Under the pieces are notes generated by a model. That model did no database searches, was not told the origin of the DNA, and saw only the letters and a list, made by a program, of their open reading frames with translations. 37,676 bases of DNA, taken from NCBI GenBank assembly GCA_964626665.1, contig CAZVGK010000031.1:1-37676 (forward strand), given 5' to 3'. The stretch is from an uncultured Gemmatimonadota bacterium (GTDB lineage Bacteria; SM23-81; DAOVCL01). Positions within the stretch are counted from its first letter, which is position 1. Each line of letters opens with the position of its first letter. The position numbers were made by a program, and so were the translations under genes. This document shows, piece by piece, positions 5,301 through 22,142 of the stretch.

Positions 5301-5305
5301 ATCTT

Positions 5306-5390
5306 GCCGAAGTGGTGGAACCTGGTAGACACGCTGCTTTGAGGGGGCAGTGCCCGATTGGGTGTGGGGGTTCAAATCCCCCCTTCGGCA
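5306..5390 (+). tRNA. tRNA-Leu (anticodon GAG), CCA not encoded
   Basis: Acceptor GCCGAAG/CTTCGGC+A; anticodon stem CTGCT/GGCAG with loop TTGAGGG; long variable arm; T-arm GGGGG-TTCAAAT-CCCCC. Confidence 0.97.
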
Positions 5391-5391
5391 T
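5339..5391 (+). repeat. attL core (3' part of the tRNA from the anticodon loop)
   Basis: Identical to 20799-20851. Confidence 0.97.
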
Positions 5392-6484
5392 CCTTGTTTT
5401 TCAATGGGTTATGGCGGTTCTGGTTTAGTGAAATCTTGCTCGATCTGGACTTGGTGTCCATAAAGTGTCCACCGAAATCCAGCATCGCCATTCCCATCCT
5501 CAGGTGATCAGGGGCCAGGTGGGCGTATCTCATCGTAGTCTTGATGTCCTTGTGGCCCATCAGCCTCTGCACCGTGGGGAGGTCCACCCCGGACATAACC
5601 AAATGGCTGGCAAAGGTATGCCGGAGAGCATGAGGGTAGAGATGGCCCAGACCGGCAGCCTTTGCTGCCTTCTCCAGTTTCTCTCTAATGAAATGATTCC
5701 CCAGCATTGACCCTCCCTGATTGCAAAAGACATACCCCTTTGCCGCCTTCATAGGCTCCAATATCCTCCGGACCTCCTCGTGCAAGGGCATTGTCCTTGA
5801 CTCATAATTCTTGGTGTGCCACTCCTCCCTGCTGCTCACTGTCAGGCTACCTCTTGCAAAGTCAATGTCCTCCCAACGGAGATTAAGAAGCTCCGACTTT
5901 CTCATCCCGGTATGGAGAGCCGTAACCACCAGAGGATAAATCTCCGGAGTGTGCTCCAGGCAGGCATCAATTAGCCTTGCCACCTCATCCTGATCAAGAA
6001 ACCTGGGAGAGTTCATCGCCACCCTGATCTTCTTCACTGGCTTGGCAGGGTTCTCCTTGAGGTATCCCCACTCAACAGCCATCCTGAGGAGATGCTTCAA
6101 GGTGTTTAACTCCCTGTTTAGAGTCTCCGGCTTCACCTTATCCAGCCTTTCAGCCTTATACCTTTCAATCTCCTTGGTGGAAATAGTGTGAAGAAAGCGA
6201 CTGCCAAAGAAAGGGATCAGGTGGACATTGATGGTTAGCAAATCCCTCCTATAGGAACTCTGGGCCTTGTTGACCTTGCAATACTTTGCATATTCCTGGG
6301 CAAACTCACGGAAGGGAACCTTCTTCGGTTCCTCAATCCCGATCTTGCCCTGGGCAATCTTGATCTGCTTATCCTTCAGGGCCAGCTTAGCAACCTGATA
6401 GGATGGCCCTATCTTCTTCCTCTTGCGGACACCTTGGACACGGTAGTCTATGAACCAGTTTTCACCCTTCTTATAGACTCCCAT
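5372..6484 (-). CDS. int: Tyrosine recombinase / phage integrase
   Basis: N-terminal arm-binding-like segment (WFIDYR..G.RKRK); catalytic TGMRKSEL, HALRHTFAS, LMGH, TTMRYAH; RBS AAGGAGG. Confidence 0.97.
   Translation of the reverse strand: MGVYKKGENWFIDYRVQGVRKRKKIGPSYQVAKLALKDKQIKIAQGKIGIEEPKKVPFREFAQEYAKYCKVNKAQSSYRRDLLTINVHLIPFFGSRFLHTISTKEIERYKAERLDKVKPETLNRELNTLKHLLRMAVEWGYLKENPAKPVKKIRVAMNSPRFLDQDEVARLIDACLEHTPEIYPLVVTALHTGMRKSELLNLRWEDIDFARGSLTVSSREEWHTKNYESRTMPLHEEVRRILEPMKAAKGYVFCNQGGSMLGNHFIREKLEKAAKAAGLGHLYPHALRHTFASHLVMSGVDLPTVQRLMGHKDIKTTMRYAHLAPDHLRMGMAMLDFGGHFMDTKSRSSKISLNQNRHNPLKNKDAEGGI
5452..5471 (+). repeat. Integrase arm-type site pair (TGGTGTCCATAAAGTGTCCA), left copy
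   Basis: Identical 20-mer at 20647-20666; contains two GTGTCCA units 11 bp apart. Confidence 0.75.
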
Positions 6485-6640
6485 GTCTCCTCCTTGGTTT
6501 TACAGGCAAAACTTCTTCTACCTTCCTTTTTCTCTAAACCGCTCAGCTTCGCTCAGGGAGGGGCCTTTCAACCCCTCCCCTATGCCCAGAGCATATTTCA
6601 ATGCTCAGGCAGCCATCATAATTGTATTAGGTTCAGGCTT

Positions 6641-6865
6641 CTAATACTGCCTTCCTTCAGGAAGTATCTTGATCAAGGTTTCCTTGACTCCATCAAGCTG
6701 CTCCTCTACCTCTTCCACCTGATTCTGGATATGCAACAAAGTCCATTGCATATCTTCCTCTGGTGTATTTTCCTTGCTACCCGCTGCTGTTATAGTCACT
6801 CCCAATTGGTGACAGATTCCGCTTAGACTGTCCTCCAGGGCCAAAATCTCATTTAGAGGATTCAT
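6641..6865 (-). CDS. Small helical hypothetical protein
   Basis: RBS AGGAGG; overlaps the upstream ORF; similar to 6849-7139. Confidence 0.7.
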   Translation of the reverse strand: MNPLNEILALEDSLSGICHQLGVTITAAGSKENTPEEDMQWTLLHIQNQVEEVEEQLDGVKETLIKILPEGRQY

Positions 6866-7139
6866 CGCTTGCCTCCTGGCTGAGATCCTTGAGCTTCTCT
6901 TCCACCTTCCACAGGATATCGTCCCGTATCTCTCTCAGCTTGTCCAGAACTCCAGAGAGAGCAAGAGAGATATCCACACCCCCAACCTGATAATCATTCA
7001 CCCACCATATGCCCTCTCCCCCTGATGCTGCAGCCACTGTCACCACCAATGTGCCGTCAATCTCCGATAGGCGGTTGTTTGCCTCTTTCATCGCCTTGAC
7101 TAACCCGGTGATCTTTTCCTTGGTGCTTGGGTTTGCCAT
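6849..7139 (-). CDS. Small helical hypothetical protein
   Basis: RBS AGGAGG; first gene after the promoter and structured leader. Confidence 0.75.
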   Translation of the reverse strand: MANPSTKEKITGLVKAMKEANNRLSEIDGTLVVTVAAASGGEGIWWVNDYQVGGVDISLALSGVLDKLREIRDDILWKVEEKLKDLSQEASDESSK

Positions 7140-7153
7140 AACACCCTCCTAAC

Positions 7154-7255
7154 AAAAAGGGCCACTTTCACTGAACCTGTCGAGGCAGGACTATGTCCTT
7201 AAACAGCTACTTGTGGCCCGTTTATAGGCAATAAAAAGCCCGCCTTCGACAGATT
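7154..7255 (-). ncRNA. Structured leader, C4/CI antisense-RNA-like architecture
   Basis: GGGCCAC/GTGGCCC helix followed by a U-run, inner AGGAC/GTCCT hairpin, and a 5' segment (7242-7255) complementary to internal segment 7174-7186. Confidence 0.5.
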
Positions 7256-7261
7256 AGATAT

Positions 7262-7290
7262 AATATACATCCTCAGATCGGATTTGTCAA
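7262..7290 (-). promoter_or_regulatory. Sigma70-type promoter
   Basis: TTGACA-N17-TATATT on the minus strand. Confidence 0.7.
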
Positions 7291-7858
7291 CAACTTTCTT
7301 TAACTTTTTTTAGGAGGGCACTTTGTAAAGGATTTTAGAAGAACACGATAATTTTGAGAGAAATAAGATATATGGAGAAAAGATTGGGCAACGCGTTGCC
7401 TCATCTTTAGATAAAAGCCGAGGATAAAAGCCCTGAGATAGCCGATTCCAGGGGGTAAACCTTCTAAGTCAACCAATCCCCCTAAACCTACCAGTTGGGG
7501 TCTTTAACCCCTGCAGTAACTCCGGGATTTCCTTCTAAACCCCCTATTAGAAGGCGATAAATTTGAGGCAGTGACCCCATAATTTCCTCTAAGTCAAACT
7601 GAGGTCTCTGCTCCACTGTTTCTTACTCTTCGACCATCGTCTCACCTATGTTTTCGCTCTCAGATTGCATTTTTAGCCCTTTTTCGCCTTATCCCTCGAC
7701 TGCGACAGAAGGGTCATTTTTAGGGTTTTAAAAGCCCCTTTTAAGTGATTTAAAGTCCCTCTCACACTCTCTGGCGCCTCCTTTTCAAAGAGGTCAAGTA
7801 TTATATCGGCTCTGAGGCCAAAAACAGAGGTAAAAGGTAGAGAGTCTTTTAACTCCTT

Positions 7859-7898
7859 AGTAGAATGAAGTAGAACGGAGTAGGATTAAGTAGGAACA
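7859..7898 (+). repeat. Four AGTAGRA units at exact 10-bp spacing (iteron-like)
   Basis: agtagaatga-agtagaacgg-agtaggatta-agtaggaaca within a ~900-bp non-coding region. Confidence 0.55.
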
Positions 7899-8035
7899 TC
7901 CTATAAGAAGTTATTTTGAAAGGTCGAGGGATAGGGCGTTGCTTTCAGACCTACAAAACCCTTGATAAACGGTCATTATTTGGATACCAAAACTGAAAGG
8001 CCCCTTATATCCACTCTTCCTCTGCACCTATACCA

Positions 8036-11000
8036 CTATCTCCTTAACGGATTGTAGTCAAATGTCAGTCTCCCTATCTCAAAGGGTTGTTTGCTTGTCT
8101 CCCGAACTCCAACTTCAATGATCTTTCCATTTGAACCCAGCCGTAGATTTTGTCGGGAATTAGCCTCGATACACTCATAAATCTCGGAGTTCTTCCCATC
8201 AATGTTAACCTCCATATCCACTTTGCCATCGCCACCATTATACCCCAGGTATAGAGCTATAAACTGAGATGAATGGTAGGGAGGTTTCCGAAAATCAAAC
8301 CTTTTCCTGACGGAAGTCTCTATAGGGCTACCATCGTCATCGGTTGCCCCTTCACCAAACTTGTATATCCTGTGATTATCCTTATCCGCAAAGAGTAATT
8401 CTCCGTTCTCATTGCCCCAGATTTCAAAATAGGAAGGATCGATCCCTCTGTATTCAGTCCAATCAAAAGAGGAGAGATCCACAACAAAAAGCCTACCATT
8501 AACATAAAGCCAGTATTCATTCTTTTTGGCATAATAAACCCCTAACGCCTTTTCCAGAATATCCCGGGACAGTTCCTTTAAATAACCGTCTAATGTGTCC
8601 CGATATCTTATGTTCCCCTCTTCATCTCGATACGCTTTTTTACCAGGATAGGCAAACGAGTTACCATCAAAGAGAAACATTCCCACAGTCGAAAGCCCCA
8701 TCACACTACCACCTACGGAAGCAAGGGTTTTCGAGGTTATCAACCCCATATTTCTTACATTCCCAATGAGATTATCCGATAGTTTCCAATACTCTACTGC
8801 TCCCGTCACTATCTCCCAACGTAGGTCATCTTTCTTCAAAATCACCAGGTTATTTTTCGCCTCTACTAATCCTATTATCGCATTGGAAGAACCAATGGGC
8901 CTCTTGTTTTCCTCTAATACCTTCTCCGGTATATCCTCCTCAGACCAATAGATTGTATTGGCTTCCCTCTCTCCTGCCAAAGATGTAGGCTGCTCGCTTG
9001 AAATATTCAAGCCAACTGCAAAATAGGTTTCCCGTAGGTATAGTTTTGCAATTTCGGCCGCTTCCAAAATTCGGTTATACCAAATGAATGTATCTACAAA
9101 ATACGGTCTGGGAGTAGAGGCTATATAAGATTCCGCCACCATAAGCAGTGCTTCATCCCAACGCTCTCCCAAATACCAGTGAAAATCAGAATTGTAAATA
9201 TAAGTGGAATAGGTGGAATCTGTAATATAGAATTCGCCAGGACTCCATTCCACCAACTTCCCATCTAAAGCTATATGCCATTTAGACTCTGCAGCATTAA
9301 CTTTTTCCCACGATATTCTAATTTGATGCCAATTCCCATCCCATAAATCCCCAATATTTTTAAAATTGAGTGACATTTCAGGAGTCAAAAAAACTATTTG
9401 AACATCTCCCGAAGTATTATGACGCAAATAAAGACCAAGACCTCTAACAACAGGAATAGGAACAGTTGGATATCCTTGCGTGCTATGCCTATATTCAAAT
9501 AAAGAATACAATTTATTGTCATCTTCACCAGGCAATGTATCCCCCAATTTAAACCAAAACGATACTGTTTGATCTTCCTGTGCTTCCGTATATCCCAATT
9601 GAGAAAAATCTATATAACCATTATCACCATCTTTTTGGGTGAGTTGAACATGTTTCCCCTCATCTTTGGTTTGGCTATTAATGCCGCCATAAAATCCGCC
9701 ATCTCCATCCACAAATTCAGCATCGTGTAAATAGCCGTATAAACCACTTTCTCGACTATTGCTGGCTCGATTATAGATTACGCTATACCCCCCGAACTTA
9801 TCCATATCAAAAAAGGCTACCATATCCGAATAAAGCAATTCCTTGCGGTATAAATCCCGCCAATCAGAGAGACTTGCCATATCCTTTTTGCCATAGAAGA
9901 CCATAATTGTCTCTGGAACCCCATCTGCCAATTGAGGAAACCTTATCTTAAAACTTACCGTCTGAGCTTCTGCGTTAAAATCAGTTTTAACAAACCCCAA
10001 TGGAGTTACTACTCCGGGGTCATTGAGCATAAACTTAAAATCTCTGCCCTCATTCGCCACAAAGTCATCATATTCGATATAATTGTCTGCCTTTGGGTTG
10101 TTCCACTGTAGAGTCGTCGGCACAATGGGATTGGTGAAAGTCTTCCCCTCATTCTGAGTTATGTGAAACATCTGGCTGTAAGCAAAACCAACCCCCGCCT
10201 CCTTCTGTGGCACTATCACATTGCCGTAATAGACCCGATTATTTACTTCTGTCAGACACCGAGCTACGGGCATCTTATCGGTATTCAGAGGCAAATCCGC
10301 CCCCGAACCATCGGCTACTGTTATATCATTGTGAACCTCATCGGCATTATTGGCGATCACCCACCTTTGCCACCCAGAAAAGACATCATCCGCAAACTGC
10401 TTGTATCGCCGATAGGTCCATCTTCCGCTTGTTCTCTCATTGAGGGATACGGGGATATCCAATCTAACTTTTCTAATGCCATAATTAAACATATACTGTC
10501 CATCTACCAATTCCGAAGCCCCCGAGGTATTACTTTCCTTATCGGGTTGGTCATCGAAATAATAGCTGACCTTATATTCGATTAAGCCAGGAGGGGTGAT
10601 AATAACCCCAGAACAGGGAGGACTCTCACATTCTTTCTCCTCCCATTCCACTACTGAACCAGAAGGAGCAATACGGGGTTTTGTCACCTCCAGAACGCCA
10701 TAATTGTCCTCGTCTTTAAAGAACATCGTTGCACTGACACCATCAGTAAGCAGAAGCCTATCACCAACGGCCAATCCCGTAATCTCCTGATTTATAACAG
10801 GGAAAAATGGAGTTATCTTGCCATTACTCCATTCCCCTGAAAGGTCTTTCTTATACCAGACGAGCTCATTTACCCCCGTTGTAAGGTCGTGTATGATAAT
10901 GTCATAAACCACGCCACTGTTCTTATAGAACCTGAAATAAGCCCTTACTCCTGCTGAATCCTCAAGCTCCTGTATGTGAAAAACAGGGATAAACCCCGGC

Positions 11001-11131
11001 CTTTTTATCCGATAACCAGGAGTCACATTTACACATAGGTTTATGCTTTCGATCACATCCTTAAATCTGGCAGTAGCATCAGGATGAGCCGACAAATTCA
11101 GAGTGCCATCTAAAGCAACTTCTTTTTCCAT
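8036..11131 (-). CDS. Putative podovirus tail nozzle / DNA-stabilization-like protein with inserted DUF2341 and LamG-like domains
   Basis: RBS AGGAGG, no signal peptide. N-terminal GYRIKRPG; propeller-like C-terminal part (TIYWSE, IIGLVE..NNLVILK, SVGGSVMGLS..GMFLFDG, YYAKKNEYWL, DWTEY); central GRDFKF...TIMVFYG and TVSFWFK...DGNWHQI...LDGK...YNRIL...EI..LY. The CDS is certain, the function is inferred. Confidence 0.7.
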   Translation of the reverse strand: MEKEVALDGTLNLSAHPDATARFKDVIESINLCVNVTPGYRIKRPGFIPVFHIQELEDSAGVRAYFRFYKNSGVVYDIIIHDLTTGVNELVWYKKDLSGEWSNGKITPFFPVINQEITGLAVGDRLLLTDGVSATMFFKDEDNYGVLEVTKPRIAPSGSVVEWEEKECESPPCSGVIITPPGLIEYKVSYYFDDQPDKESNTSGASELVDGQYMFNYGIRKVRLDIPVSLNERTSGRWTYRRYKQFADDVFSGWQRWVIANNADEVHNDITVADGSGADLPLNTDKMPVARCLTEVNNRVYYGNVIVPQKEAGVGFAYSQMFHITQNEGKTFTNPIVPTTLQWNNPKADNYIEYDDFVANEGRDFKFMLNDPGVVTPLGFVKTDFNAEAQTVSFKIRFPQLADGVPETIMVFYGKKDMASLSDWRDLYRKELLYSDMVAFFDMDKFGGYSVIYNRASNSRESGLYGYLHDAEFVDGDGGFYGGINSQTKDEGKHVQLTQKDGDNGYIDFSQLGYTEAQEDQTVSFWFKLGDTLPGEDDNKLYSLFEYRHSTQGYPTVPIPVVRGLGLYLRHNTSGDVQIVFLTPEMSLNFKNIGDLWDGNWHQIRISWEKVNAAESKWHIALDGKLVEWSPGEFYITDSTYSTYIYNSDFHWYLGERWDEALLMVAESYIASTPRPYFVDTFIWYNRILEAAEIAKLYLRETYFAVGLNISSEQPTSLAGEREANTIYWSEEDIPEKVLEENKRPIGSSNAIIGLVEAKNNLVILKKDDLRWEIVTGAVEYWKLSDNLIGNVRNMGLITSKTLASVGGSVMGLSTVGMFLFDGNSFAYPGKKAYRDEEGNIRYRDTLDGYLKELSRDILEKALGVYYAKKNEYWLYVNGRLFVVDLSSFDWTEYRGIDPSYFEIWGNENGELLFADKDNHRIYKFGEGATDDDGSPIETSVRKRFDFRKPPYHSSQFIALYLGYNGGDGKVDMEVNIDGKNSEIYECIEANSRQNLRLGSNGKIIEVGVRETSKQPFEIGRLTFDYNPLRR

Positions 11132-11133
11132 CT

Positions 11134-11331
11134 TTACCTCCTGTATTTTTTATTCAATTTTTCACCAGCCACTAAAAATTTTCCCGCATCTGAGTATAAA
11201 CACCCTACCCCGTTTCTGAGGGTTATAAACCAATATTCCAAGTAGATAGACGGGTGACTTGTCATAGTATAACCATCCCTAAAAGGGCCTACCCCCCAGA
11301 CAAGGGATGCCTTCACATTTGGTCTCGACAC
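11134..11331 (-). CDS. Small hypothetical protein or truncated remnant of an upstream phage gene
   Basis: Ends 2 bp before the 1031-aa start and contains its RBS; weak start signal. Confidence 0.35.
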   Translation of the reverse strand: MSRPNVKASLVWGVGPFRDGYTMTSHPSIYLEYWFITLRNGVGCLYSDAGKFLVAGEKLNKKYRR

Positions 11332-11453
11332 ATTCGCTCAAAGAACTCAGGGTAAACCGAGCTCACCCCCGTAAATCTTCCGCCTGTTCCTTTCTGTTAA
11401 GTGTTTAGGATAGAGCAAACCATCAGAGATGTTATATACCCCCATACCTATAC

Positions 11454-11714
11454 CTACAAAGACCCCCCATTGGACAACCCCGTCACCCTCTTTGTCTCCT
11501 CCTTCAGGGTCCTGGCTCCCTCTCTCAGGAGTTCTATCACCGGCTCTATAACCTCCGAGTTAAGGGCTATTCCCTTCTTGCTTGGTCTATACTCACCACT
11601 TTCCTCATCCTCATAATAAACCCGAACATCAATAAACCGATGGCCCTTATACTCCCTCTCCTCAACCCTGATTAACTCCTTAGCATTCTTCCGAATTTCC
11701 CCTAACTGTTTCAT
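11454..11714 (-). CDS. PC4/p15-family ssDNA-binding protein
   Basis: KNAKELIRV...EYKG..FIDVRVYY...YRPSKKGIAL signature. Confidence 0.88.
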   Translation of the reverse strand: MKQLGEIRKNAKELIRVEEREYKGHRFIDVRVYYEDEESGEYRPSKKGIALNSEVIEPVIELLREGARTLKEETKRVTGLSNGGSL

Positions 11715-11925
11715 CTCTTCTCATCTCCCTCAACTTTGAGCTTCTAAGCTCCCCTTTCAATGCCCTGGTTATAGCTTCTCCGATCCGCTCTGAGAAAGCT
11801 TCCAGTTAAGCCTATATGGGGTAATTATGGGTCATACAAGCCGATGGTGAGCCTTTTCCCTTGTAAATGGAGATGTGTCCTTCCACACTCTAAAAAGCTT
11901 GTCTGAAGGCTTATGTGGGGCATTT

Positions 11926-12144
11926 CTATTCAGAACCGACCTCCTCCGGCTTCTCTCCCTCCGGTGTCCTACCTTTGACCCTCCTAATGGTAATGGTGAT
12001 GGTTCCACCCTCTTTGACAACCGTTACTTGGCCCTTCTCCTCAAGTTCCTTTTGCATTTCATCGGTAATCCTACAGTCAAGTATCTTTTCGGTTTCCTCT
12101 TCATTCCCACCTTCTGCCTGCTGTTTTACTTCTTTTTTAGCCAT
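11926..12144 (-). CDS. Small acidic hypothetical protein
   Basis: ATG 12144 follows RBS AAAGGAGG; same orientation as neighbours. Confidence 0.6.
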   Translation of the reverse strand: MAKKEVKQQAEGGNEEETEKILDCRITDEMQKELEEKGQVTVVKEGGTITITIRRVKGRTPEGEKPEEVGSE

Positions 12145-12249
12145 TTTGGGCCTCCTTTCAGCAGTTTTGGACACCATTTGGACACCAACCACACACAGCT
12201 TGCCCTAACTCCCACTAAAAGCAAGCACTTACTAATGTTTGACACTGCA

Positions 12250-12438
12250 CTACCGATGCAATGGCTCAATCTCACTCTCCCCAAGCCACTGCTCAATCTG
12301 GCTTTGTTTGAACCTCACCAGGTTGCCCTCCGCAAGTTTGATATAGGGGATCCTCCGCTGCATAATCCAGGTATTCAGAGTTGAAAGCTTAATACCGAGC
12401 CACTCAACAAGTTCTTGCTTAGTTAATAACTTATCCAT
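12250..12438 (-). CDS. Excisionase/AlpA-like HTH protein
   Basis: LLTKQELVEWLGIKLSTLNTW...RIPYIKL...VRF...IEQWL, the HTH_17 pattern. Confidence 0.9.
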   Translation of the reverse strand: MDKLLTKQELVEWLGIKLSTLNTWIMQRRIPYIKLAEGNLVRFKQSQIEQWLGESEIEPLHR

Positions 12439-12482
12439 TTAGCCCGTAATTCTCTGACACTGTGTCTATTCCTTCCTCTTTT

Positions 12483-12974
12483 TTACTTTGAAGGCTTCGG
12501 TAAGTGTCCCTTGGGCCTTCTCCTCGATTGTTCCGCCAGTAGTTTTTTCTCATAAGCTACCAGTTCCTCATCACTCATATTCTCAACATCCGGCATTGCC
12601 CTCTGTATTATCAAAGGCTCGAAATCAACCTCATTCTTTCGCCGCTCTACAAGTTCGCCTATGATCTGATAATAGAGTCTGCGATCCTGTGAACCCGTTG
12701 GTTTCTGGGCTGCCTCCACCAAAGCCTGATCAATGGCTTCCCTGGCCCCTTTGAGTGTTCCCAGGCGTTCCTCAATGGCCTTTTTTACCTCTTCTTGAAA
12801 CATCTCCCCCTGTTTCCATCGCCAAACGGTACTAATATTTACCCCTATCTCCTTCGCACATTCCACCTCACCAACACCTCGGCCCAACATCAGAGCAGCC
12901 GCTTGCTGAGCAGGGGTTAACTCCCTCCCTTTTTGCTTGTTCTCCTTCGTATCTGTAACTTTCTTTGTGACCAT
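12483..12974 (-). CDS. Small-terminase-like HTH protein (phBC6A51-like)
   Basis: LTPAQQAAA..L...ECAKEIGVNISTVWRWK...F HTH, helical core, and C-terminal DVENMSDEEL typical of TerS proteins. Confidence 0.7.
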   Translation of the reverse strand: MVTKKVTDTKENKQKGRELTPAQQAAALMLGRGVGEVECAKEIGVNISTVWRWKQGEMFQEEVKKAIEERLGTLKGAREAIDQALVEAAQKPTGSQDRRLYYQIIGELVERRKNEVDFEPLIIQRAMPDVENMSDEELVAYEKKLLAEQSRRRPKGHLPKPSK

Positions 12975-13193
12975 TTAATTTACCTCCTCTTCTAACAATT
13001 GAGTGGGACCGGTCTCCTCCTCTGACCGTTCCCCTAATAGACCAAGTAATTCATAACGCCGTCTCCGAGCTTCTGTCCCCTTCGGGCCTTTTATCAAAGC
13101 CGATTTAACCAGAGCTTTGAGTTCTTCCTTAGAAGGAAGTTTGGATTTCCCCTTTTTGTTTGCATTCCTTTGCACGGTTCCTCCTGTCTTCAT
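12975..13193 (-). CDS. Hypothetical protein resembling the central region of the adjacent TerS-like protein
   Basis: RBS GAGG; abuts the next gene; shares ALV..A..K.P.G...RR..Y...G.L.ER. Confidence 0.6.
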   Translation of the reverse strand: MKTGGTVQRNANKKGKSKLPSKEELKALVKSALIKGPKGTEARRRRYELLGLLGERSEEETGPTQLLEEEVN

Positions 13194-13310
13194 AAATTAT
13201 TAGCTATAACCTCTGTTTAATTTGGGGGGGAGAGAAGTTGGTACCCCTAAGACAACTCTTTTATTTTTAAGCATTTAAGTCTATTTAATTTTAACTTCTC
13301 CTCTCCCTCT

Positions 13311-15323
13311 CTAACTTTTCTCCCCCTCAAAATATGTTTTTGAGAAGAACCGGATATTTTCCATTAGTTGGGAGATTTTTTCAGTGAGTCGCCACTTGAA
13401 GGTTCCGGTGCCCTCCCTCTCCACAATCTTCAACAGCCTGAAATCCTCCAATGCCATTTTACAGGTCTCAGTGGGGAACTCGGTCATCTCTCCTATCTCG
13501 CCAGTCGGGAGAAATTCGCTTCTAAGGTGATATAAGGTCTCCAAGAGCCGGACCCTTTTTGAAGGTAAGGTATCGCTGGCTATTCGCCGCAGCAGTTCAA
13601 ACTCATCGGCTTCTATCTGGGTTTTACCTCTGATCCCGGCAAGGGCAGAGCCAAGCTTGGTGAACTGTCCAACCAGTCGGGTTCCAATCTCAGGCACAGG
13701 GGCAAAATCTACCCTTTCGTTCCTCAGTCCAGAACGAGACACGGTTGAACGCAAGACAGCCAAGAGGCTTGCCAAGTCAATTATTAAATCCAGTGTCTCC
13801 TCCGGGATGGCAATGGTCTCTTCTTTGCTTAGTTTGCAGGTGAGAAGGAACCCTTGGATTGCTTCCTTTAGCTCCAACCTCATTTCTCTGGCTTTGCCCC
13901 TATTGGTGGCCGCCCGCCTCACCCTCTCCTTAGTATCGCTACTGGTGAGCCTGAGCCGAAGAAATCTCTCCCCAAGATCCTGCTCGACAGAATAATATCG
14001 GTCAATAGCCGGTGTGACGGCAGCTATAAGCCCAAATTTTGAGACATAGGATTTGCTCCAGACCCCTGAGCCGAACTCCCTGGAGGCCTCCCCATCATAG
14101 GCATCCCTGAGCTGGCTAAAGATTTCCCCTCGCACATAATGATGTAAGCCCAGGATGGCGGTAAAATCTTTGATCACAAGAACCTTTCCATTCAGTCGAG
14201 GGAGTAGAGAGGGATCGGATTTGTTTTTTGGCACCTTCAGCCCTGAAATCAATGTATTCTGTGTCAAGCTGGATGTGCTGTAGATCTCCTTGCATCCTTT
14301 CAAGGCCCTTAAAATCTCTGTCTTCATCCCTCCAGGCGGGGCTACGACAAATAGCCATACAGGATCACCCTCAAAGCGGTTCGCTATAACAGAGGCCAGG
14401 ACAACATCGAGGACAATATCCTCCCCAGCCTCAATGTATAGCCACTTATGGAAAGTATCCTTCACATCTTGGAGGGAAACTTCAGGCTGTGGCAATTCCA
14501 CCTCCGGGAACTGAGGGATCTGTTGGACAAGCTCCAGCAAGGCCTCCTTGTCTCCCCCCTGGTCCAGCCAGTCGCTTACATCCCCCTTTTCGGGGAGGCC
14601 TGGCAGGTCAAGCACTTTTACACTTTTTACCTTGTCCACTAAGGAATTGGCAACCTTCTGGCCGTGATCTTTACCCGGAGGATCGTTGTCAGGGAGAATA
14701 ACCACATCCCGGCCTTGAAAATAGGGATTGTATTCTTGTCTCCACTTGCCACTCCCTCCAGGGTTCGTGGTAGCAGTGAGTCCCAGTTTAATCAACCTGT
14801 CCGCATCCTTCTCACCCTCCACTACGAACACAGGATCAGAGCCTTTGATTAACTCCTGTAGGCGATAGAGAACTCTCTTTATTCCATTCAAGTTCCATAC
14901 CCATTCCTCCTTCCCGTCCGGCCTCCGTTGAGCAAACCCTTTCGGCTCATACCTGACAACCTGGAAGAGGAGATTGCCCTTCTCGTCAGTGTAATCATAG
15001 GTCTGGACAATTCTCTTGGAATTGCTGCAAGGTATGTTGAAGTCAGCAATGATTCCCTTTAGGATTGCAGAGAAATCCCTTTTTATATTAAGGTTATACT
15101 TCAGGGCATAGAAGGTGAAGATGTTTCCCTTAGCTCCACAAGCATGGCAATAAAATTGCCCAGTCTTATAGTTAAGGGATAGGGAAGGATTATGATCGTC
15201 GTGGAAAGGACAGAGGACAGGTCGTTTGTCTTCTTTCGGTAGGTTTGTTATATAGTGGCTAAAGAAGGGTCTAAAATTGCCATTAAAATAGTCTAAAATG
15301 ATCCTTTTCTCATCTATCTTCAT
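13311..15323 (-). CDS. Primase-helicase (CHC2 zinc finger + TOPRIM + AAA+/MCM-like ATPase)
   Basis: CPFHDD..PSL...FYCHACG; VVEGEKDAD and ILPDND; Walker A-like APPGGMKT, Walker B-like VLVIKD, LRDAYDG, GERFL. Confidence 0.92.
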   Translation of the reverse strand: MKIDEKRIILDYFNGNFRPFFSHYITNLPKEDKRPVLCPFHDDHNPSLSLNYKTGQFYCHACGAKGNIFTFYALKYNLNIKRDFSAILKGIIADFNIPCSNSKRIVQTYDYTDEKGNLLFQVVRYEPKGFAQRRPDGKEEWVWNLNGIKRVLYRLQELIKGSDPVFVVEGEKDADRLIKLGLTATTNPGGSGKWRQEYNPYFQGRDVVILPDNDPPGKDHGQKVANSLVDKVKSVKVLDLPGLPEKGDVSDWLDQGGDKEALLELVQQIPQFPEVELPQPEVSLQDVKDTFHKWLYIEAGEDIVLDVVLASVIANRFEGDPVWLFVVAPPGGMKTEILRALKGCKEIYSTSSLTQNTLISGLKVPKNKSDPSLLPRLNGKVLVIKDFTAILGLHHYVRGEIFSQLRDAYDGEASREFGSGVWSKSYVSKFGLIAAVTPAIDRYYSVEQDLGERFLRLRLTSSDTKERVRRAATNRGKAREMRLELKEAIQGFLLTCKLSKEETIAIPEETLDLIIDLASLLAVLRSTVSRSGLRNERVDFAPVPEIGTRLVGQFTKLGSALAGIRGKTQIEADEFELLRRIASDTLPSKRVRLLETLYHLRSEFLPTGEIGEMTEFPTETCKMALEDFRLLKIVEREGTGTFKWRLTEKISQLMENIRFFSKTYFEGEKS

Positions 15324-15341
15324 CTCGCTATCTTCCTTTTA

Positions 15342-15587
15342 TTAACCGTAGCTAAGGGCTTTCAAGCTCTTCATCGCATCAACAAAGCTCAAAGGTTCAA
15401 TCAATAGCTTTTTATTCACAAGATCAATCAGCAGTTGCTTTCGTTCTGGGCTATCCTCGAACTCGAACAGAGCCCGGCCATTGCCATTGGGCTGAACGCC
15501 CAACAGAGGAAAGCCCTTTATCTTCAGCAAGGCGGCAAACCACAGGTCATGGGTTGAATATTTATCTCTGTCATCTTTCATATTCAC
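15342..15587 (-). CDS. DUF5659-like small protein
   Basis: YSTHDLWFAALL...GFPLL...RALFEF pattern; directly upstream of the primase. Confidence 0.7.
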   Translation of the reverse strand: MNMKDDRDKYSTHDLWFAALLKIKGFPLLGVQPNGNGRALFEFEDSPERKQLLIDLVNKKLLIEPLSFVDAMKSLKALSYG

Positions 15588-15600
15588 ATCTCATCCTCTA

Positions 15601-15670
15601 AAACAAAAAATCCCACGGAAGTAATCCAACCTCCGTGGGATAATATAATGCATCAAAGATATAAACGCAA
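15601..15670 (-). promoter_or_regulatory. Promoter with overlapping inverted repeat / terminator-like hairpin
   Basis: TTGCGT-N17-TATATT (15670-15642); TCCCACGGA/TCCGTGGGA (15611-15640) followed by a T-run on the minus strand. Confidence 0.55.
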
Positions 15671-15793
15671 GAGCTTAAAACAAAAGCATTTATTACTGTT
15701 TTAGATATGCCAAAACATCATCATTCTGGGCTGTTTCAGTTTCCCTGAATTACAGTCCTGTGTACTCAAGCAATGACTGGATCATGAGGGTCC

Positions 15794-17152
15794 CTACTTT
15801 TTTACCCCCCATTTCTTCAAATCCTTCCTATAAGCCCTCATATATTCTCGGGAACGTTTCTGAAGTCTTGGTTTATTCTCCTGGTAGTGTTTGGCAGCGG
15901 AATGCTTCTTATTGCAGGGTTTACCTTCTATCGAACGCGAGCAGTATTCTCTTTCTTGTCCGGAGTTGGTGGTTGGAACTATCGGAAGGCCACATAGCTT
16001 ACACCGCTCTGCTATTCCCTTCTTTACCAACTCATCCACAAGGGCATCATAGCATTGGGCTGGGAATTTATTCAAAGCACTTTTGTTTTCCTCTTCATGA
16101 GTGAATTCCAGAGATTCTCTAATGCACAATATCATCTGCCTACAGTGATTCTCGATCGACCGAGTTTTATGCCTCTTAAGATCTGCAGGAAATCTGTTTA
16201 TATACCGTGTCAAGGCTTGATACAGGGTTGAACCCTCCCCTTTAAAAAGATCATTATAGTCTCTCAGTACAGATGCCTGCGCCCAGAAATTTCCCCGGGG
16301 GATTGTAGCTCTTCCTTCCACTAGGCAGAGCACGTCCCACACGTTTGCAAATATTTCTTCCAATTTCATATCTAAGAAATAAACTCGGCTGAAATTCTTG
16401 AGTTCCCGCGCCGACATCTTGTCTGTTATCTCCCCAGCTATCTCCCCTGCAATCTTTTCACTTGCCTCCATTCTCACTCTATGTTTCTCCGCTTTTTCCT
16501 CTTCTTCTTTTTCCTCTTCCTCTTCCTCTTCCCAATCATACCCTAATACTATGTCCTCCCCATGCTTCTTTATGAACCGAGTTATGAATTGTTTTACGCT
16601 TTGCCTTAAAGGCAAACTTCCCTCTCCTATTACCCCATACTCTAACCAAAGTCTTGGGGAGAAGAATTCAATCAATGCAGGCTGCCTCTTTATGGGGTTC
16701 CTCTCGAATTCTGGACCAGCCCTTCTTCCGATAGATTCCAGCCGCTCTTCATACCTTTTCCAAAACTCTGAACTCCGGTCCCTTTTCAATACCTTAGATT
16801 CCTGAATTTCAAAGTGTGCACAGAGTATTATCTTCTCAATAGACGGGGAGTAATATGACCGCATTCTATCCTCAATAACACCTAATTGGCTCCTAAGGTC
16901 GGAATCATCTAATTCCGCATAAGAGTTACACCCACATACGTAGGGTCCTATATCTATAGACCCAAGTGCCCCCCTATAGTACTTAGTTCTTTTCCTTCTT
17001 GCTAAGCCAATATAAAGATATATCCATTGCTTCCCGTCAAACTCCTCAAATTCGTTGCAAACACTCGCGCCTAACATAGTTGAGCCAAAAGGTATGCTGT
17101 AGCCGGCAATATACCAATCACTTGGATCCACTTGAAAATCAGTTTTACTCAT
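15794..17152 (-). CDS. Hypothetical protein with C-terminal 4-Cys zinc finger and basic tail
   Basis: 452-aa ORF with a poly-Glu linker and CKLCG...REYCS...C (CGNR-like). Confidence 0.8.
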   Translation of the reverse strand: MSKTDFQVDPSDWYIAGYSIPFGSTMLGASVCNEFEEFDGKQWIYLYIGLARRKRTKYYRGALGSIDIGPYVCGCNSYAELDDSDLRSQLGVIEDRMRSYYSPSIEKIILCAHFEIQESKVLKRDRSSEFWKRYEERLESIGRRAGPEFERNPIKRQPALIEFFSPRLWLEYGVIGEGSLPLRQSVKQFITRFIKKHGEDIVLGYDWEEEEEEEKEEEEKAEKHRVRMEASEKIAGEIAGEITDKMSARELKNFSRVYFLDMKLEEIFANVWDVLCLVEGRATIPRGNFWAQASVLRDYNDLFKGEGSTLYQALTRYINRFPADLKRHKTRSIENHCRQMILCIRESLEFTHEEENKSALNKFPAQCYDALVDELVKKGIAERCKLCGLPIVPTTNSGQEREYCSRSIEGKPCNKKHSAAKHYQENKPRLQKRSREYMRAYRKDLKKWGVKK

Positions 17153-17206
17153 CTCATTTCACTCCCTATAATGTCATTTACTTGTCTTTCTTTTCCCTAT
17201 CGTCCC

Positions 17207-18655
17207 TCACTTAATCACCACCATCCTCCTCGTCTCCACAAAACTCCCCGCTTGCAACCTGTAGAAATATATCCCTGAACCTACATCCTTCGCATTCCAG
17301 GTTACAGCTTTATATCCAGGAGCTTGGTTTTCATCTACTAAAGTGGCAATCTTCTCTCCCAGGATATTGTAAACCTCCAGCCTCACCTGACAATCCCTTG
17401 GCAAAGCATACTTGATCTCCGTAGTCGGATTAAAGGAATTAGGGTAGTTCTGGAATAAAAGAAAATCCTTTGGAAGATAATCATAAGTTTGCCCTTCAAT
17501 CCCAATGACTTCACCAAGGGAATTTGTTTTGATCAAATAGATACCGCCGCTACCAGTCTCCCCTGCAATGATAAACCCTTCATCAGAAGTTTGGGCAATA
17601 GACTCGCCCTGACCTCCATCCCAAAGGCCATAAGTTCTTGTCCAGAGGGTATCACCTAAAGAATCGGTCTTGATAAGGTAGATATCCCTATAATGAGAAC
17701 TGTAGGACTCTGTCCAACCCACAATGCCATATCCTCCATCCGAACACTTAGCAACAGAGCGGCCCTCGTCATCGTCACTACCCCCATAAGTCTTTGTCCA
17801 AATAGTATCGCCTAAAGAATCTGTTTTAATAAAGTAAAAATCTGCGTATCCTGCACCATAGGAAAAAGTATATCCACCAATGATAAATCCCCCATTAGAG
17901 GTCTGCGCAACTTCCATGCCAACATCATCATAGTTCCCCCCGTAGGTTTTTGTCCACAAGGTAAAACCCAGGGAATCGGTTTTGATGAGATAGACATTAC
18001 TCATGCCTGCACCGAAAGAGTATGTCTGTCCTGCAATAATGTATCCTCCATTAGTGGTTTGGGCAACTGAGCGACCTATATCTGTCTTCGTATCTCCATA
18101 ATTCCTCGTCCAAAGGGTATCACCTAAGGAGTTAGTCTTAACGAGGTAAACATTATCGAAAGAACCGGGTGTGGGCTGTATAGATCCCGTGAGTATATAT
18201 CCTCCATCAGAGGTTTTGGCAACCGACAAACCTGCACTCACACGGTTACCGCCATATGTCTTTATCCAGAATAAATTACCCAAGCTATCAATTTTGATTA
18301 AAAAGGGATTATAAGCTGCAGCACCCCAGGACTCTGACCAGCCAGTGACGACATAACCCCCATCGGGAGCTTGAACAACTGAACGACCATAATCATTTTC
18401 TCCACCACCATAGCTTCTTGTCCACAGAGTGTCCCCCAGCGAATCTGTCTTGACTAAATATACATCACAAACAGCCTTATCAGGAGACCTTGTTTCTCCT
18501 GCAATTGCGTATCCTTGATCAGAAGTTTGGATAACTGAAAAGCCTTGATTGCCACCATATCTGTGCTCAAAGGTGATTTGTGTCAAAGCCACTCCTCCAC
18601 CGAATAATGCTACAGCTACTATGCTTGCCACCAAACCTAATCTCATCTTTCTCAT
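17207..18655 (-). CDS. Secreted beta-propeller repeat protein with T9SS/FlgD-like C-terminal domain
   Basis: Signal peptide; about 7 repeats of YL.KTDSLGDTLWT..YGG...G.SV.Q..DGGY; QNYPNSFNPTT...GIYFYRL. Confidence 0.92.
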   Translation of the reverse strand: MRKMRLGLVASIVAVALFGGGVALTQITFEHRYGGNQGFSVIQTSDQGYAIAGETRSPDKAVCDVYLVKTDSLGDTLWTRSYGGGENDYGRSVVQAPDGGYVVTGWSESWGAAAYNPFLIKIDSLGNLFWIKTYGGNRVSAGLSVAKTSDGGYILTGSIQPTPGSFDNVYLVKTNSLGDTLWTRNYGDTKTDIGRSVAQTTNGGYIIAGQTYSFGAGMSNVYLIKTDSLGFTLWTKTYGGNYDDVGMEVAQTSNGGFIIGGYTFSYGAGYADFYFIKTDSLGDTIWTKTYGGSDDDEGRSVAKCSDGGYGIVGWTESYSSHYRDIYLIKTDSLGDTLWTRTYGLWDGGQGESIAQTSDEGFIIAGETGSGGIYLIKTNSLGEVIGIEGQTYDYLPKDFLLFQNYPNSFNPTTEIKYALPRDCQVRLEVYNILGEKIATLVDENQAPGYKAVTWNAKDVGSGIYFYRLQAGSFVETRRMVVIK

Positions 18656-18856
18656 CTTCTCCCCCCTTTTTTATGGTGACGATTATCCAGTCTTTTACCC
18701 TCACTTAAGCAAGATCATTCTTTGACTTTGTTTTTGTCCATAGTTTTGTCACACTTAACTTACTTTATCAACAACTACTTAGGACATCGACATTGGTATT
18801 TTTGTCCAAAGATTTGTCAGGAATTTGGCCTTTCAACCAAATTAGCAGATAAAGCA

Positions 18857-18940
18857 AATGGCGTCCAAACCTCCCGTTGCCCGGGTGGGGTAACAACAGA
18901 AGATTCGAACGCCATTCAAAAGCTTACTATTCCCCACCCG
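18857..18940 (-). ncRNA. Candidate structured RNA: 25-bp helix plus 9-bp loop pairing
   Basis: Helix 18857-18881/18892-18916 is uninterrupted only on the minus strand (7 G-U pairs). Loop 18882-18890 is the exact reverse complement of 18932-18940. TATAAT at 18959-18954. Confidence 0.6.
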
Positions 18941-18985
18941 TGATTTTTAAGCAATTATATAACTAACGTGGTGGTTTTACTGAAT

Positions 18986-20008
18986 TCAATCAAAATTGGG
19001 GATACTTAGCGAATCGGCATACTCATAACTTATGATCTTCCCGTATCCCGTTTGTTTGCATGCTTCTTCTTGGTGTGAATAATGATAAATTGTTGAGCCA
19101 GAATAATTCTTAAAATACTTACAAACGAATTTTATGCATCTCAATTCATAAGCAGTGAAAACGTTCATATCTGGCTCTATTCCAAGCCGTAATTCTTCTC
19201 CCAAATTGTTTGCATTCGGAATTTCAACAAAGTCCCGGATGATCAGCTCGTCATCAATCATCTTCTCCAGATATTTCTCCCAATTATCTGGCACCGGCCC
19301 TAGGTCAATGCGAACATATGGTGCACCCGTTATCGACCTTTTGTATTCTCGGAAATGAAGAAAATCCGAATAGAATAGCAACTTCAACAATTTCGTTTTA
19401 TAAACACGATAATTCTCTTTGATCACTAATAGCACTGTATTTTGAAACTTGTCGAAGTCAAAAGGGCGATTCCCAGTATTTAAGCTCATCTTGTAATTGC
19501 AGAACTTCTTCTCCCACAACTGTTGGTACTCTTGATCATCTTCAGTTCTGATGAGCTCTTTTAGTTTTTCTTCAAACTTCTCAACTTCAGATCCTGATAG
19601 ATTACCTCTATTTTCTTTGAAAAGCAGATACATGTTTTTCGGAGACTGGATGAACTTCAAGACACTGTTATGAGCTTCATCTTGCAATGCACCGGCTTCG
19701 TAGTTATGAATGGTAATTTCTCCCCATCCCAATAATCGACTTAACGCTCTTTGGCTCAGTCCATACTTTCGCCTAATGGAAGCAACATCATCGGGGAATA
19801 GATAATTATGCCTGGCTCGATAAGAATCATAAAGGGCCTTGAGGTTCTTTTCCTCCAGTTCAGTAGTCGCAAATTCCTCATTACAGACTTCGCATTTCAA
19901 TACTTCAGCTTGAATGGTAATTTCTTCTTTGCGAAGACTGTACTTCTCCGCTCTCTTTATTAAGGCTACCTCCCTAATGGCCTCACAATTGGGACAAAAT
20001 CTTTTCAA
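18986..20008 (-). CDS. Antitoxin: MqsA-type zinc finger + HTH + SocA/Panacea (DUF4065) domain
   Basis: CPNC...CEVC; IRRKYGLSQRALSRLLGWG; KTKLLKLLFYSDF.HF...SITG..Y...LGPVP...YSH. TTG start at 20008 after RBS AGGAGG. Confidence 0.9.
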   Translation of the reverse strand: MKRFCPNCEAIREVALIKRAEKYSLRKEEITIQAEVLKCEVCNEEFATTELEEKNLKALYDSYRARHNYLFPDDVASIRRKYGLSQRALSRLLGWGEITIHNYEAGALQDEAHNSVLKFIQSPKNMYLLFKENRGNLSGSEVEKFEEKLKELIRTEDDQEYQQLWEKKFCNYKMSLNTGNRPFDFDKFQNTVLLVIKENYRVYKTKLLKLLFYSDFLHFREYKRSITGAPYVRIDLGPVPDNWEKYLEKMIDDELIIRDFVEIPNANNLGEELRLGIEPDMNVFTAYELRCIKFVCKYFKNYSGSTIYHYSHQEEACKQTGYGKIISYEYADSLSIPNFD

Positions 20009-20016
20009 AAACCCTC

Positions 20017-20367
20017 CTACTGTTTGAATGGATACTTGATGTGATGTTTGGCTGGATGAAAGGAAAGGCACTTGGCATACTTTTGCTCTCCCAATTCAAC
20101 AATCTTGAGTTTGATGTAAATCTCTCGATAGTCCACCTCCATTCCAAAAATCCAGACATCGCCAGATTCTTCTTGATCATCTGGCAGAGGCCCGTCCGAA
20201 TAGTCACGATAATCAAGATTGAGAATGATTTGTTCTCTGATGGAAGGAGTTAATCCCAAATCTATTAGGGCTTCAATGTTAGGTCGACGTGGAACTACAT
20301 CCAGTCCGTGGGTGGCAATAGCTATCTTTAAATTGGCTAAGAACTTCTCAATTTCTGTTTTCGACAT
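20017..20367 (-). CDS. MqsR-like toxin (RelE-fold RNase)
   Basis: N..ALI.LG...DY..GP..D...VWIFG...EIYIKLK...CLSFH signature; directly upstream of the antitoxin. Confidence 0.88.
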   Translation of the reverse strand: MSKTEIEKFLANLKIAIATHGLDVVPRRPNIEALIDLGLTPSIREQIILNLDYRDYSDGPLPDDQEESGDVWIFGMEVDYREIYIKLKIVELGEQKYAKCLSFHPAKHHIKYPFKQ

Positions 20368-20409
20368 TTAGACATTGTCTAATATACATTATCATATGAT
20401 AAAAGTCAA
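20368..20409 (-). promoter_or_regulatory. TA promoter with two palindromic operator candidates
   Basis: TTGACT-N17-TATATT; palindromes TTATCATATGATAA (20389-20402) and TTAGACA-T-TGTCTAA (20368-20382). Confidence 0.75.
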
Positions 20410-20646
20410 GGATTTTTTTGTTATTTTATAATAACGCATATAACCATAAAATAATCCCCAAATTCCAAGCAGTTAGGTTATTTTGGCTAACGGAATCAAT
20501 GGGAATCGAACTTACACCAGGGTTAACACAGCCCTTTTTTGTCAAACCTCCAACTTCAATTTCCTTGGCCAGGGGGCCTCGGAGGTCAACCTACCCGGAG
20601 CCTCCGAAGCCCCTTGGTCTAAGCTGGTGAAACTGTCAATCTAATC

Positions 20647-20666
20647 TGGTGTCCATAAAGTGTCCA
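20647..20666 (+). repeat. Integrase arm-type site pair, right copy
   Basis: Identical to 5452-5471. An IHF-consensus AATCAACAAGTTA (20766-20778) lies between it and the core. Confidence 0.75.
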
Positions 20667-20798
20667 TAGAGGAACGAAATCCATCTAAAACTATCTAAGC
20701 AAATGTAAGAAAACTAACCCCTGTTGTCAAGGCCAAATTCAAGCTGGTCAACGAATTGCCCTGAAAATCAACAAGTTAGCCAAAACCTCCTGATGGCC

Positions 20799-20851
20799 TT
20801 GAGGGGGCAGTGCCCGATTGGGTGTGGGGGTTCAAATCCCCCCTTCGGCAT
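20799..20851 (+). repeat. attR core (displaced tRNA-Leu 3' fragment)
   Basis: 53-bp identity to 5339-5391. Confidence 0.97.
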
Positions 20852-20860
20852 ATAAACCGT

Positions 20861-20898
20861 TGTGCCGTCAGGACCAAAGTCCTGACGGCATATTTTTT
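20861..20898 (+). terminator. Intrinsic terminator (probably the original tRNA terminator)
   Basis: TGCCGTCAGGAC-CAAA-GTCCTGACGGCA followed by a T-run, directly after attR. Confidence 0.8.
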
Positions 20899-20965
20899 CT
20901 TCCAAGCTGTTTGCCTGCAAACCCCGCTCTCACCTATCTCCTGTGCCCCAGAGGATCTACATCGG

Positions 20966-22142
20966 CTATTTTAGCAAAATCATCTTTTTGCTCTCCACAA
21001 AGCTCCCCGCTTGCAGCCTGTAAAAGTAAATACCTGACGCCACCCCACTTGCATCCCACCTGACCGCCTTATATCCCGCCTCCTGTGTGCCCTCCACCAG
21101 AGTAGCCACCCTTTGCCCAAGAATGCTATAAACCTCCAACCTCACCTGGCAATCCTTTGGCAAGGCATATCTAATCTCCGTCACTGGGTTGAATGGATTA
21201 GGGTAGTTTTGGGATAGGGAAAAGCTCTCAGGCAGATCCACATCCCTGTTGCCATAAACGCCTACTTCCCAACCTGCTTCATTTGAACGAATGCTCTCAT
21301 TTCCGGCGAAGTCAAAGGCAGAAACCTGATAATAATAGGTACTGCCCCAGAGAACATCTGAATCGCTGTAGAATGTATCTATGGTTGTCCCTAGAAGGCT
21401 TGAGGTAGTATCTGGATCAGTCCTTCTATAAACGGCATAATAGCGGAAATCCTCATCGGGGATAGCATTCCAATCCAGATTTACGGACGTATCCCCTGAA
21501 GCGGCGGTTAGTCCTTTGGGTGTTGAGGGAGCAAGGTTATCCACCGAATAACCGCTGTCAATTTCGGAGGCAAAATAGAATCAATGGCTCAGGGGTCATA
21601 GCGGAGACGAAGAACACGCTCCAGCAAGTATCGTCAGAGGTCAAATCACATAGGGTAGGTGCAACGCAATTGTAAACCTCCTGCCCACAAGCAGGAACAG
21701 TCAGGATATAGTGCCAATCACCAGGAGGGAATGATTTCAGAGAAGGAACATCCTCCTCCTTAGTTTCCCTCCCACTCAGGGAAACCGACAGGCTGTCAAT
21801 TCTTCTCCATAGACAGTATTCGGTAATGGTAACAGTATCCTCAGGGGCATCATATTCGGAGGCATACCAGGAGACGGTGACTTGGCGTCCCTGGTCATTG
21901 GGAATATCCGTAATTGACTTGATATATGGTGGTCCATTTATTGGAGCAGTAAGGAACGGGGTATAAAGAACTTCCCCCTGGGTTGAATCATCGTAATAAT
22001 CATAAATCCTGGCATCAATCGAATCTGTATTCGTTGTTCCCCACCAATTGTTGGTGGCGTTGACGTCACCATTCATATGGACAAGGCAAATTTCGTATTC
22101 ACCTTTGTTCACAAGGTTGTTATAGGTTATTGTTGCGTGTGA
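20966..22142 (-). pseudogene. Frameshifted, 5'-truncated FN3 + C-terminal sorting-domain protein
   Basis: ORFs 21558-22112 and 20966-21544 join if one base near 21579 is removed (TPEPLI/YFASEIDSGYSVDNLAP). No signal peptide or RBS upstream. Confidence 0.75.

Follow-up and report, generated by a model that had tools for sequence, protein, structure and literature searches.

A strand-specific RNA hairpin whose loop covaries with an upstream 9-mer: a candidate transcription attenuator in a narrow bacterial lineage

The tI/sib retroregulator of phage lambda is a terminator hairpin near the att site, downstream of int, and its longer form is a substrate of RNase III. Terminators can also be one half of a switch: two reports describe transcriptional riboswitches and attenuators, among them the ZTP riboswitch, as terminator/antiterminator pairs that are resolved by co-transcriptional strand displacement (PMC10085676; bioRxiv 10.1101/521930). 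A third arrangement is that of the CI RNA of satellite phage P4, which causes transcription to end early by binding matching sites in the transcript that carries it (PMC4825925); its relatives are the C4 RNA of P1 and P7 and the IsrK RNA of Gifsy-1.

We compared these systems with an element on the minus strand of a 37,676-nt stretch of DNA from an uncultured bacterium, here called the window. The element is a long hairpin preceded by a 9-mer that is complementary to its loop. It resembles the riboswitch and attenuator platforms in having mutually exclusive helices that share one strand, in the predicted displacement of the earlier helix by the 3' arm of the terminator, in its U-rich tail and in its position in a 5' leader. 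Unlike those platforms, it contains no aptamer or sensor that we could recognise, it stands before functionally unrelated genes, its putative antiterminator uses the loop of the terminator and only the upper half of the 5' arm, its stem has 25 bp with seven G-U pairs, and it has no relationship to them in sequence or in Rfam. With P4 CI, C4 and IsrK it shares the form of a leader RNA with an exposed sequence complementary to a site just upstream and, on the reading that we favour, a tie to premature termination; it differs in that all copies have the upstream site but no conserved downstream target, and in having no Rfam match. Like lambda tI/sib, the window copy is a long hairpin near the attR of an island, but the element lies upstream of cargo genes and also occurs away from att sites.

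We refer to the genome of the window as G000 and to a sister species of the same phylum as G002; C numbers denote contigs and L numbers the loci compared, with L009 standing for G002 contig C94 and L033 for the copy on G002 contig C49. Read along the minus strand, a conserved AAAAUCA (18941-18947, from alignments of the copies) stands directly before the 9-mer CGGGUGGGG (18932-18940, placed by exact match), the 5' strand of the putative antiterminator and complementary to the loop. A 15-nt linker (18917-18931) follows; in the alternative fold, part of it is base-paired to the upper 5' arm, as judged by minimum free energy (MFE) folds of truncated transcripts and by pair counts. Next come the 5' arm of the hairpin (18892-18916; sequence, fold and covariation counts), the upper half of which is common to the putative antiterminator, a 10-nt loop (18882-18891) made up of an A and CCCCACCCG, the 3' strand of the 9-mer helix, and the 3' arm (18857-18881; sequence and fold), which includes a GGGAGG stretch. 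The last nine loop bases (18890-18882) match the 9-mer base for base as its complement. Between the arms run 25 uninterrupted pairs, of which seven are G-U, and a U-rich tail recognised from alignments and tail sums (18846-18856) lies directly 3' of the hairpin. The layout given by the first-pass annotation, with its 9-mer, 15-nt linker, 25-bp helix containing seven G-U pairs and complementary loop, is thus present in the sequence in every part. The TATAAT that it had set at the head of the element (18959-18954, minus strand) does not hold up as a promoter: it has no -35 partner, does not appear in the output of our promoter scan and is not conserved across the other copies.

The hairpin is a real, strand-specific fold and not a chance one. 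In our own stem scan its stem formed a run of 27 pairs, the longest uninterrupted stem of the window; the longest contiguous stem elsewhere on the plus strand had 14 pairs, and the longest stems in 30 dinucleotide-preserving shuffles of the window, both strands included, had 12-18. Folded as RNA, the minus strand reached -46.8 kcal/mol (z = -3.49) and the plus strand -24.9 kcal/mol (z = -0.39), so the claimed strand specificity stood, the plus strand having no comparable fold; with DNA folding parameters the minus strand gave z = -1.98. Under a covariance model of the element, the minus strand of the window copy scored 109.5 bits and the plus strand 22.7 bits. We also considered a coding reading of the hairpin and rejected it, because the copies include a 1-nt deletion (L014), a 1-nt insertion (L016) and an in-frame stop in the C94 copy of G002, which falls in the only ATG-started frame of the hairpin.

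Searches returned 18 distinct copies, two in G000, two in G002 and the rest in one metagenome-assembled genome (MAG; L010) and in metagenome contigs. The second G000 copy, on contig C4, is 82% identical to that of the window; the intact copies of G002 lie on C94 and, in diverged form, on C49. An exact-pattern (20-mer) scan of genome contigs yielded the MAG, G002 again and one chance match, in the Hyphomicrobiales locus L012, where the remainder of the element is absent. A gapped pattern that fixed only the two halves of the lower stem yielded 16 metagenome contigs, three of them identical to the two copies of G000; the 9-mer and the loop were part of no pattern. The C49 copy of G002, the most diverged of all, was found only by a covariance model (R1), built from 17 of the 18 distinct sequences, and its structure is kept. 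The element occurred only in G000 and G002 both in a covariance-model search of 141 genomes and in a DNA search of 61 genomes; the model did not find it in the other five genomes of the phylum, and no similar DNA was met in viral contigs (pattern search), phage records or plasmid records. All copies come from one narrow lineage and are close relatives, not independent cases, and the sequence of the element is 78-80% conserved among them in alignments.

That the annotation had recognised no family was borne out by Rfam, which, with the gathering threshold applied, matched nothing in the window and nothing in 13 loci; with E values up to 10 allowed on 18400-21000, the hairpin still drew no match. 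ARAGORN reported no tRNA-like gene at the element, the only one in the window being a tRNA-Leu gene at 5305-5393; a tRNA, tmRNA or T-box identity was rejected on these grounds, as neither program recognises the element. Nor did we meet the known REP or IS end that had been named as a possible refuting match: with two intact copies each in G000 and G002 and no phage or plasmid match, the element is not a repeat of the REP or MITE type or an IS end. A literature search on riboswitches, noncoding RNAs and attenuators in Zixibacteria returned no paper naming that group, and this is the sole literature basis for calling the element novel. The element is new as a family; in kind it is a leader of the well-known terminator/antiterminator sort. 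Three of its features are unusual: the putative antiterminator closes on the loop of the terminator itself, the 9-mer can change its address freely, and the stem of 25 bp is rich in G-U pairs.

Comparison of the 18 sequences supported the claimed selection on a single-stranded fold, with two-sided changes in both helices. The helix between 9-mer and loop is 91% paired, and five of its nine pairs have changed on both sides. The long helix is 97% paired, a count that one narrow lineage limits and that owes part of its lower-stem conservation to construction, because the search pattern required the lower stem; one of its 25 pairs has changed on both sides and 11 on one side only, from G-U to G-C or A-U with pairing kept. 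Adding the C49 copy of G002 raised the number of one-sided variable pairs in the long helix from eight to 11. Taken together, the two helices are paired in 95.7% of cells, as against 39-56% when the 3' partners were slid by one to three columns, and the observed covariation score was reached in none of 500 column shuffles. The 9-mer and loop are the fastest-changing part of the element and always change in a compensating manner: the address variants CGGGUGGGG, CUGGUGGGA, CUGGCGGAA and CUGGCAGCA each occur with a matching loop. The two copies of G000 carry different addresses, and the C94 and C49 copies of G002 share the same core address. This pattern of changes indicates that both helices are under selection.

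The first-pass annotation had called the RNA pseudoknotted or switching, and the second of these terms is the better one. In an alternative helix of about 16 bp, the loop and the upper half of the 5' arm are paired with the 9-mer and the linker. This helix and the long hairpin have a strand in common and cannot form together; since the 9-mer helix reaches into the upper 5' arm, the long hairpin is excluded while it lasts. A true pseudoknot would need nine loop pairs atop an intact 25-bp stem, which by a geometric argument, not a computed one, is impossible with a 10-nt loop and a connection of 0-1 nt. On the alignment the 16-bp helix is 93.7% paired versus 35-63% when slid, counts that are biased upward because the helix was derived from these same sequences; its pairs between linker and upper arm show one-sided changes only. 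When transcripts were truncated just after the loop, this helix was the MFE structure for 17 of the 18 copies. The exception, L016, has a shortened alternative helix that has lost the outer three pairs of the 9-mer.

We then followed folding as the transcript grows. In stepwise folds of nine loci the alternative helix was the MFE structure once the loop was out (9/9) and persisted with the upper 3' arm out in seven (not in L009 or L025); the full hairpin took over only with the whole 3' arm out (9/9). The full hairpin is the equilibrium fold in every copy, with energies for the 25-bp hairpin from -24.6 to -36.7 kcal/mol, and because it always wins at equilibrium a switch would have to be purely kinetic, resting on these folding predictions. 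The U-rich tail is conserved in the alignments, whereas past its end the loci have no sequence in common. Tail sums ranged from 2.9 to 3.9 with the count begun at the A that follows CGCC, and from 3.9 to 5.5 with the count begun one base later (18/18 copies); they were computed with our own weights, of the kind used in terminator-finding programs. The hairpin is missed by a simple terminator scan, probably because that scan allows loops of at most 8.

The surroundings of the copies are those of a leader. Sigma-70-like promoters, found with our own pattern, lie 140-250 nt upstream of the element in eight of 15 loci, and about 75 nt upstream in the C49 copy of G002 (L033); between promoter and element there is a variable structured leader, with a conserved hairpin, hairpin A, in many copies. 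On the other side the next start codon follows closely in the C94 copy (+19) and the C49 copy (about +20) of G002, in L024 (+37) and in L025 (about +47), and a Shine-Dalgarno-like run precedes it in the first three. As these start codons lie within about 50 nt of the tail, with no obvious room for another promoter, their genes seem to need read-through. Across the loci the downstream genes are not related to one another; they comprise T9SS-sorted proteins, a protein of the MBL fold, a Fic-like gene or its remnant, a DNA methylase and several unknowns; no common function among them points to a ligand, and we recognised no aptamer or other sensor.

The C49 copy of G002 is flanked by genes for a threonine dehydratase and an MBL-fold protein. 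A T9SS-sorted protein of about 410 aa with this fold recurs downstream in L014, L024, L025 and L033, either directly or after one or two inserted genes, and its gene may be the ancestral regulated gene. In four other loci (L013, L020, L021 and L022) a purine-rich run some 20-30 nt past the hairpin leads into an ATG with a stop codon right behind it. This start-stop mini-ORF is conserved among the four directly 3' of the U-rich tail.

With moderate confidence we read the element as the expression platform of a 5' leader, a kinetic terminator/antiterminator attenuator that would terminate, permit read-through and thereby regulate. During transcription the 9-mer and linker would pair with the loop and the upper 5' arm as an antiterminator of about 16 bp, all parts of which would leave the polymerase before the 3' arm exists. 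The 3' arm, once made, would have to displace this helix to complete the 25-bp hairpin, and the completed hairpin with the U-rich tail would be an intrinsic terminator. Whether displacement succeeds before the polymerase exits the U tract would set how much transcription reaches the downstream gene or genes, and weakening or occupying the 9-mer side would be expected to raise termination. A stable hairpin lies directly before a U-rich tract in all 18 copies, the alternative helix that shares a strand with it forms first by prediction, and the element has a promoter-like site upstream in eight of 15 loci and in L033, and a start codon at most about 50 nt downstream in four copies. Of the three roles proposed at first pass, a leader for the cargo gene fits best. 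The stem is unusually long for an intrinsic terminator, which counts against this reading.

A rival explanation is a plain element without switching, that is, a strong terminator or a hairpin that stabilises mRNA or is processed by RNase III, with the 9-mer as a folding aid or tertiary contact. A 25-bp RNA duplex is of the size cut by RNase III, the hairpin is the equilibrium fold throughout, and in L015 the next gene is convergent, so that at this locus termination is the only sensible role. A plain terminator, however, needs neither a covarying partner upstream for its loop nor a linker conserved to pair with the upper arm; a strong one would silence the several genes that start right after the tail; and the 10-nt loop cannot, by the geometric argument above, hold nine pairs atop an intact stem. 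We consider this explanation unlikely.

The window copy lies in an island. An exact 53-bp direct repeat (5339-5391 and 20799-20851) is the 3' part of the tRNA-Leu(GAG) gene found by ARAGORN at 5305-5393, and the 15.5 kb between the repeats (island 5339-20851) is an integrated island. A tyrosine integrase gene (5372-6484, minus strand; gene family search) overlaps the end of the tRNA; farther in lie a small-terminase-like gene (12483-12974) and a primase/helicase gene (13311-15323), and the island also holds large unknown genes and a gene for a T9SS-sorted protein. Nearly all genes are on the minus strand, and the set resembles that of a phage satellite. A 20-bp repeat (5452-5471 and 20647-20666) containing ATGGACAC was also seen and is perhaps a site bound by the arm of the integrase.

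At the inner edge of the distal repeat is the sigma-70-like ancestral leader promoter (TTGACA-17 nt-TACATT, 20702-20730, minus strand; 10 of 12 matches in the promoter scan), which is 1.8 kb from the switch with a toxin-antitoxin (TA) module between them. The promoter region recurs in G002 and at two island ends of G000, on C61 (about 927-1061) and C14 (about 13700-13819). Neither of these two has a switch, and the C61 copy adjoins a tRNA-like 3' fragment; they suggest that G000 contains more islands of this family. Hairpin A of the window (20573-20613, minus strand) was recognised from sequence common to its relatives and as a conserved stem by RNAalifold. Its sequence is common to G002, C4, L010, L014, L022 and L025-L027, and in intact relatives it stands shortly upstream of the switch; in G002 it is directly joined to AAAAUCA and the 9-mer.

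In the window, about 1.6 kb separates hairpin A from the switch (18948-20559, minus strand, boundaries uncertain by about 4 nt), as defined by comparison with G002, from which the TA module is absent. The module has its own promoter (20409-20381, minus strand; promoter scan), followed by a 116-aa ORF (20367-20017, minus strand) and a 361-aa antitoxin of the MqsA family with a Panacea domain (20071-18986, minus strand; family searches), whose stop codon lies 46 nt before the element. The 116-aa ORF belongs to no known family, and an MqsR label for it is unsupported, with no match in Pfam, NCBIfam, PHROGs or PDB. At the corresponding position the C4 copy carries two other genes, which encode a 109-aa protein and a clan-AA aspartic protease; because the window and C4 copies have in common a small deletion before the 9-mer and a downstream Fic-type leader, they are close paralogues. 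Comparison with the relatives indicates that the TA genes are a local insertion inside an older leader and not the partner of the element, and that the window switch is cut off from its own promoter and hairpin A and now sits at the 3' end of the TA operon, before the T9SS-cargo gene.

The satellite-like setting recalls P4 and suggests a self-immunity RNA of the CI type. The terminated hairpin would then be a small RNA whose C-rich loop pairs in trans with the nascent 9-mer, blocking the antiterminator and forcing termination in a negative autoregulation, and the variable address would keep co-resident copies independent. The window copy and the C94 copy of G002, both inside an integrase-bearing island, head a string of genes on its att-proximal side, with a primase at the far end, as in P4; a tRNA-Leu island with an integrase and a small-terminase-like gene has the P4 layout; and the rapid but always compensated change of 9-mer and loop, with different addresses in the two G000 copies, likewise speaks for it. 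Against this, a scan from -400 to +600 revealed no second site complementary to the loop at a conserved place downstream, Rfam gave no match with C4 and isrK included, most copies lie outside recognisable islands (C49 of G002 for example), and the C94 and C49 copies of G002 share their core address. On balance we think an immunity RNA of this type unlikely.

We hold a related proposal to be equally doubtful, namely an address-coded, self-limiting attenuator. Here the loop of the terminated RNA would act in trans on 9-mers of the same locus, so that each copy would count its own output with no protein, processing signal or second target; compensated change of the address would make copies orthogonal, and the module might also be a landing or exchange point for accessory cassettes, such as the TA genes upstream and the cargo downstream.

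Should the attenuator switch as predicted, it would be a compact regulatory module of about 110 nt without a recognisable sensor domain, which a barely studied lineage places before very different accessory genes. Its re-addressable 9-nt pair would be a natural part for studying the kinetic control of termination, and a possible source for synthetic biology of a set of orthogonal attenuators built on one scaffold.

The element could also act as DNA, as a folded single-strand recombination site of the attC kind, a single-strand origin or the boundary of a gene-exchange cassette. Its conserved core has sharp limits, with genes that vary from copy to copy on either side, and tyrosine-recombinase genes or their fragments lie near some copies. 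On C94 of G002 the intact copy and two decayed ones, of which one at L009 9222 retains the 3' arm only and the other at L009 13894-13974 has lost the centre of the hairpin, lie on one strand within 8 kb, and a piece of 11 nt resembling the 3' arm stands at the left end of the TA module. Each decayed copy, however, looks as if an inner segment of the element had been lost between two short direct repeats. The seven G-U pairs are also far better tolerated in RNA (z -3.49 versus -1.98 for DNA), there is one intact copy per locus without arrays, and the copies stand behind promoters in the orientation of the genes; taken together, this makes a DNA-level element quite improbable. An integron attC site in particular was rejected: no core boxes were seen by eye against the attC consensus, there are no arrays, and the sequence itself is conserved.

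The 11-nt stretch at the left end of the TA module (about 20551-20541, minus strand), nearly identical to part of the 3' arm, may be all that is left of an earlier copy of the switch that has decayed; if so, the TA genes once lay between two tandem copies.

That the RNA is a partner of the neighbouring TA system, as RNA antitoxin or toxin target, is highly improbable and largely refuted by its distribution: the window copy follows the antitoxin closely and the C4 copy also comes after a two-gene module, but 16 of the 18 distinct copies have no module upstream, the two modules are mutually unrelated, and G002 has the RNA, yet a search of the six other genomes of the phylum, of which G002 is one, turned up no antitoxin homologue. 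The linkage to the TA locus proposed at first pass failed on the same counts. No relative of the antitoxin was found in viral contigs either. Type III TA systems have tandem repeats; a type III RNA was rejected, the element being a single unit without such repeats that adjoins any two-gene module in only two of 18 copies. The annotation of the window is corrected accordingly: the RNA is not part of the TA system, and the TA genes sit inside an older leader, in a satellite-like island.

Beyond the tail, two 21-bp direct repeats, TGACAAAnCTnTGGACAAAAA, lie at 18819-18799 and 18751-18731 (minus strand). The C4 locus has them too, and there the Fic-like gene begins with a start codon that the second repeat overlaps. 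In the window an ORF remnant (18741-18715) keeps eight codons of the Fic-like gene and a stop, with the T9SS-sorted gene next in line. The repeats have the look of an operator, and the remnant that of a cargo gene which has been replaced.
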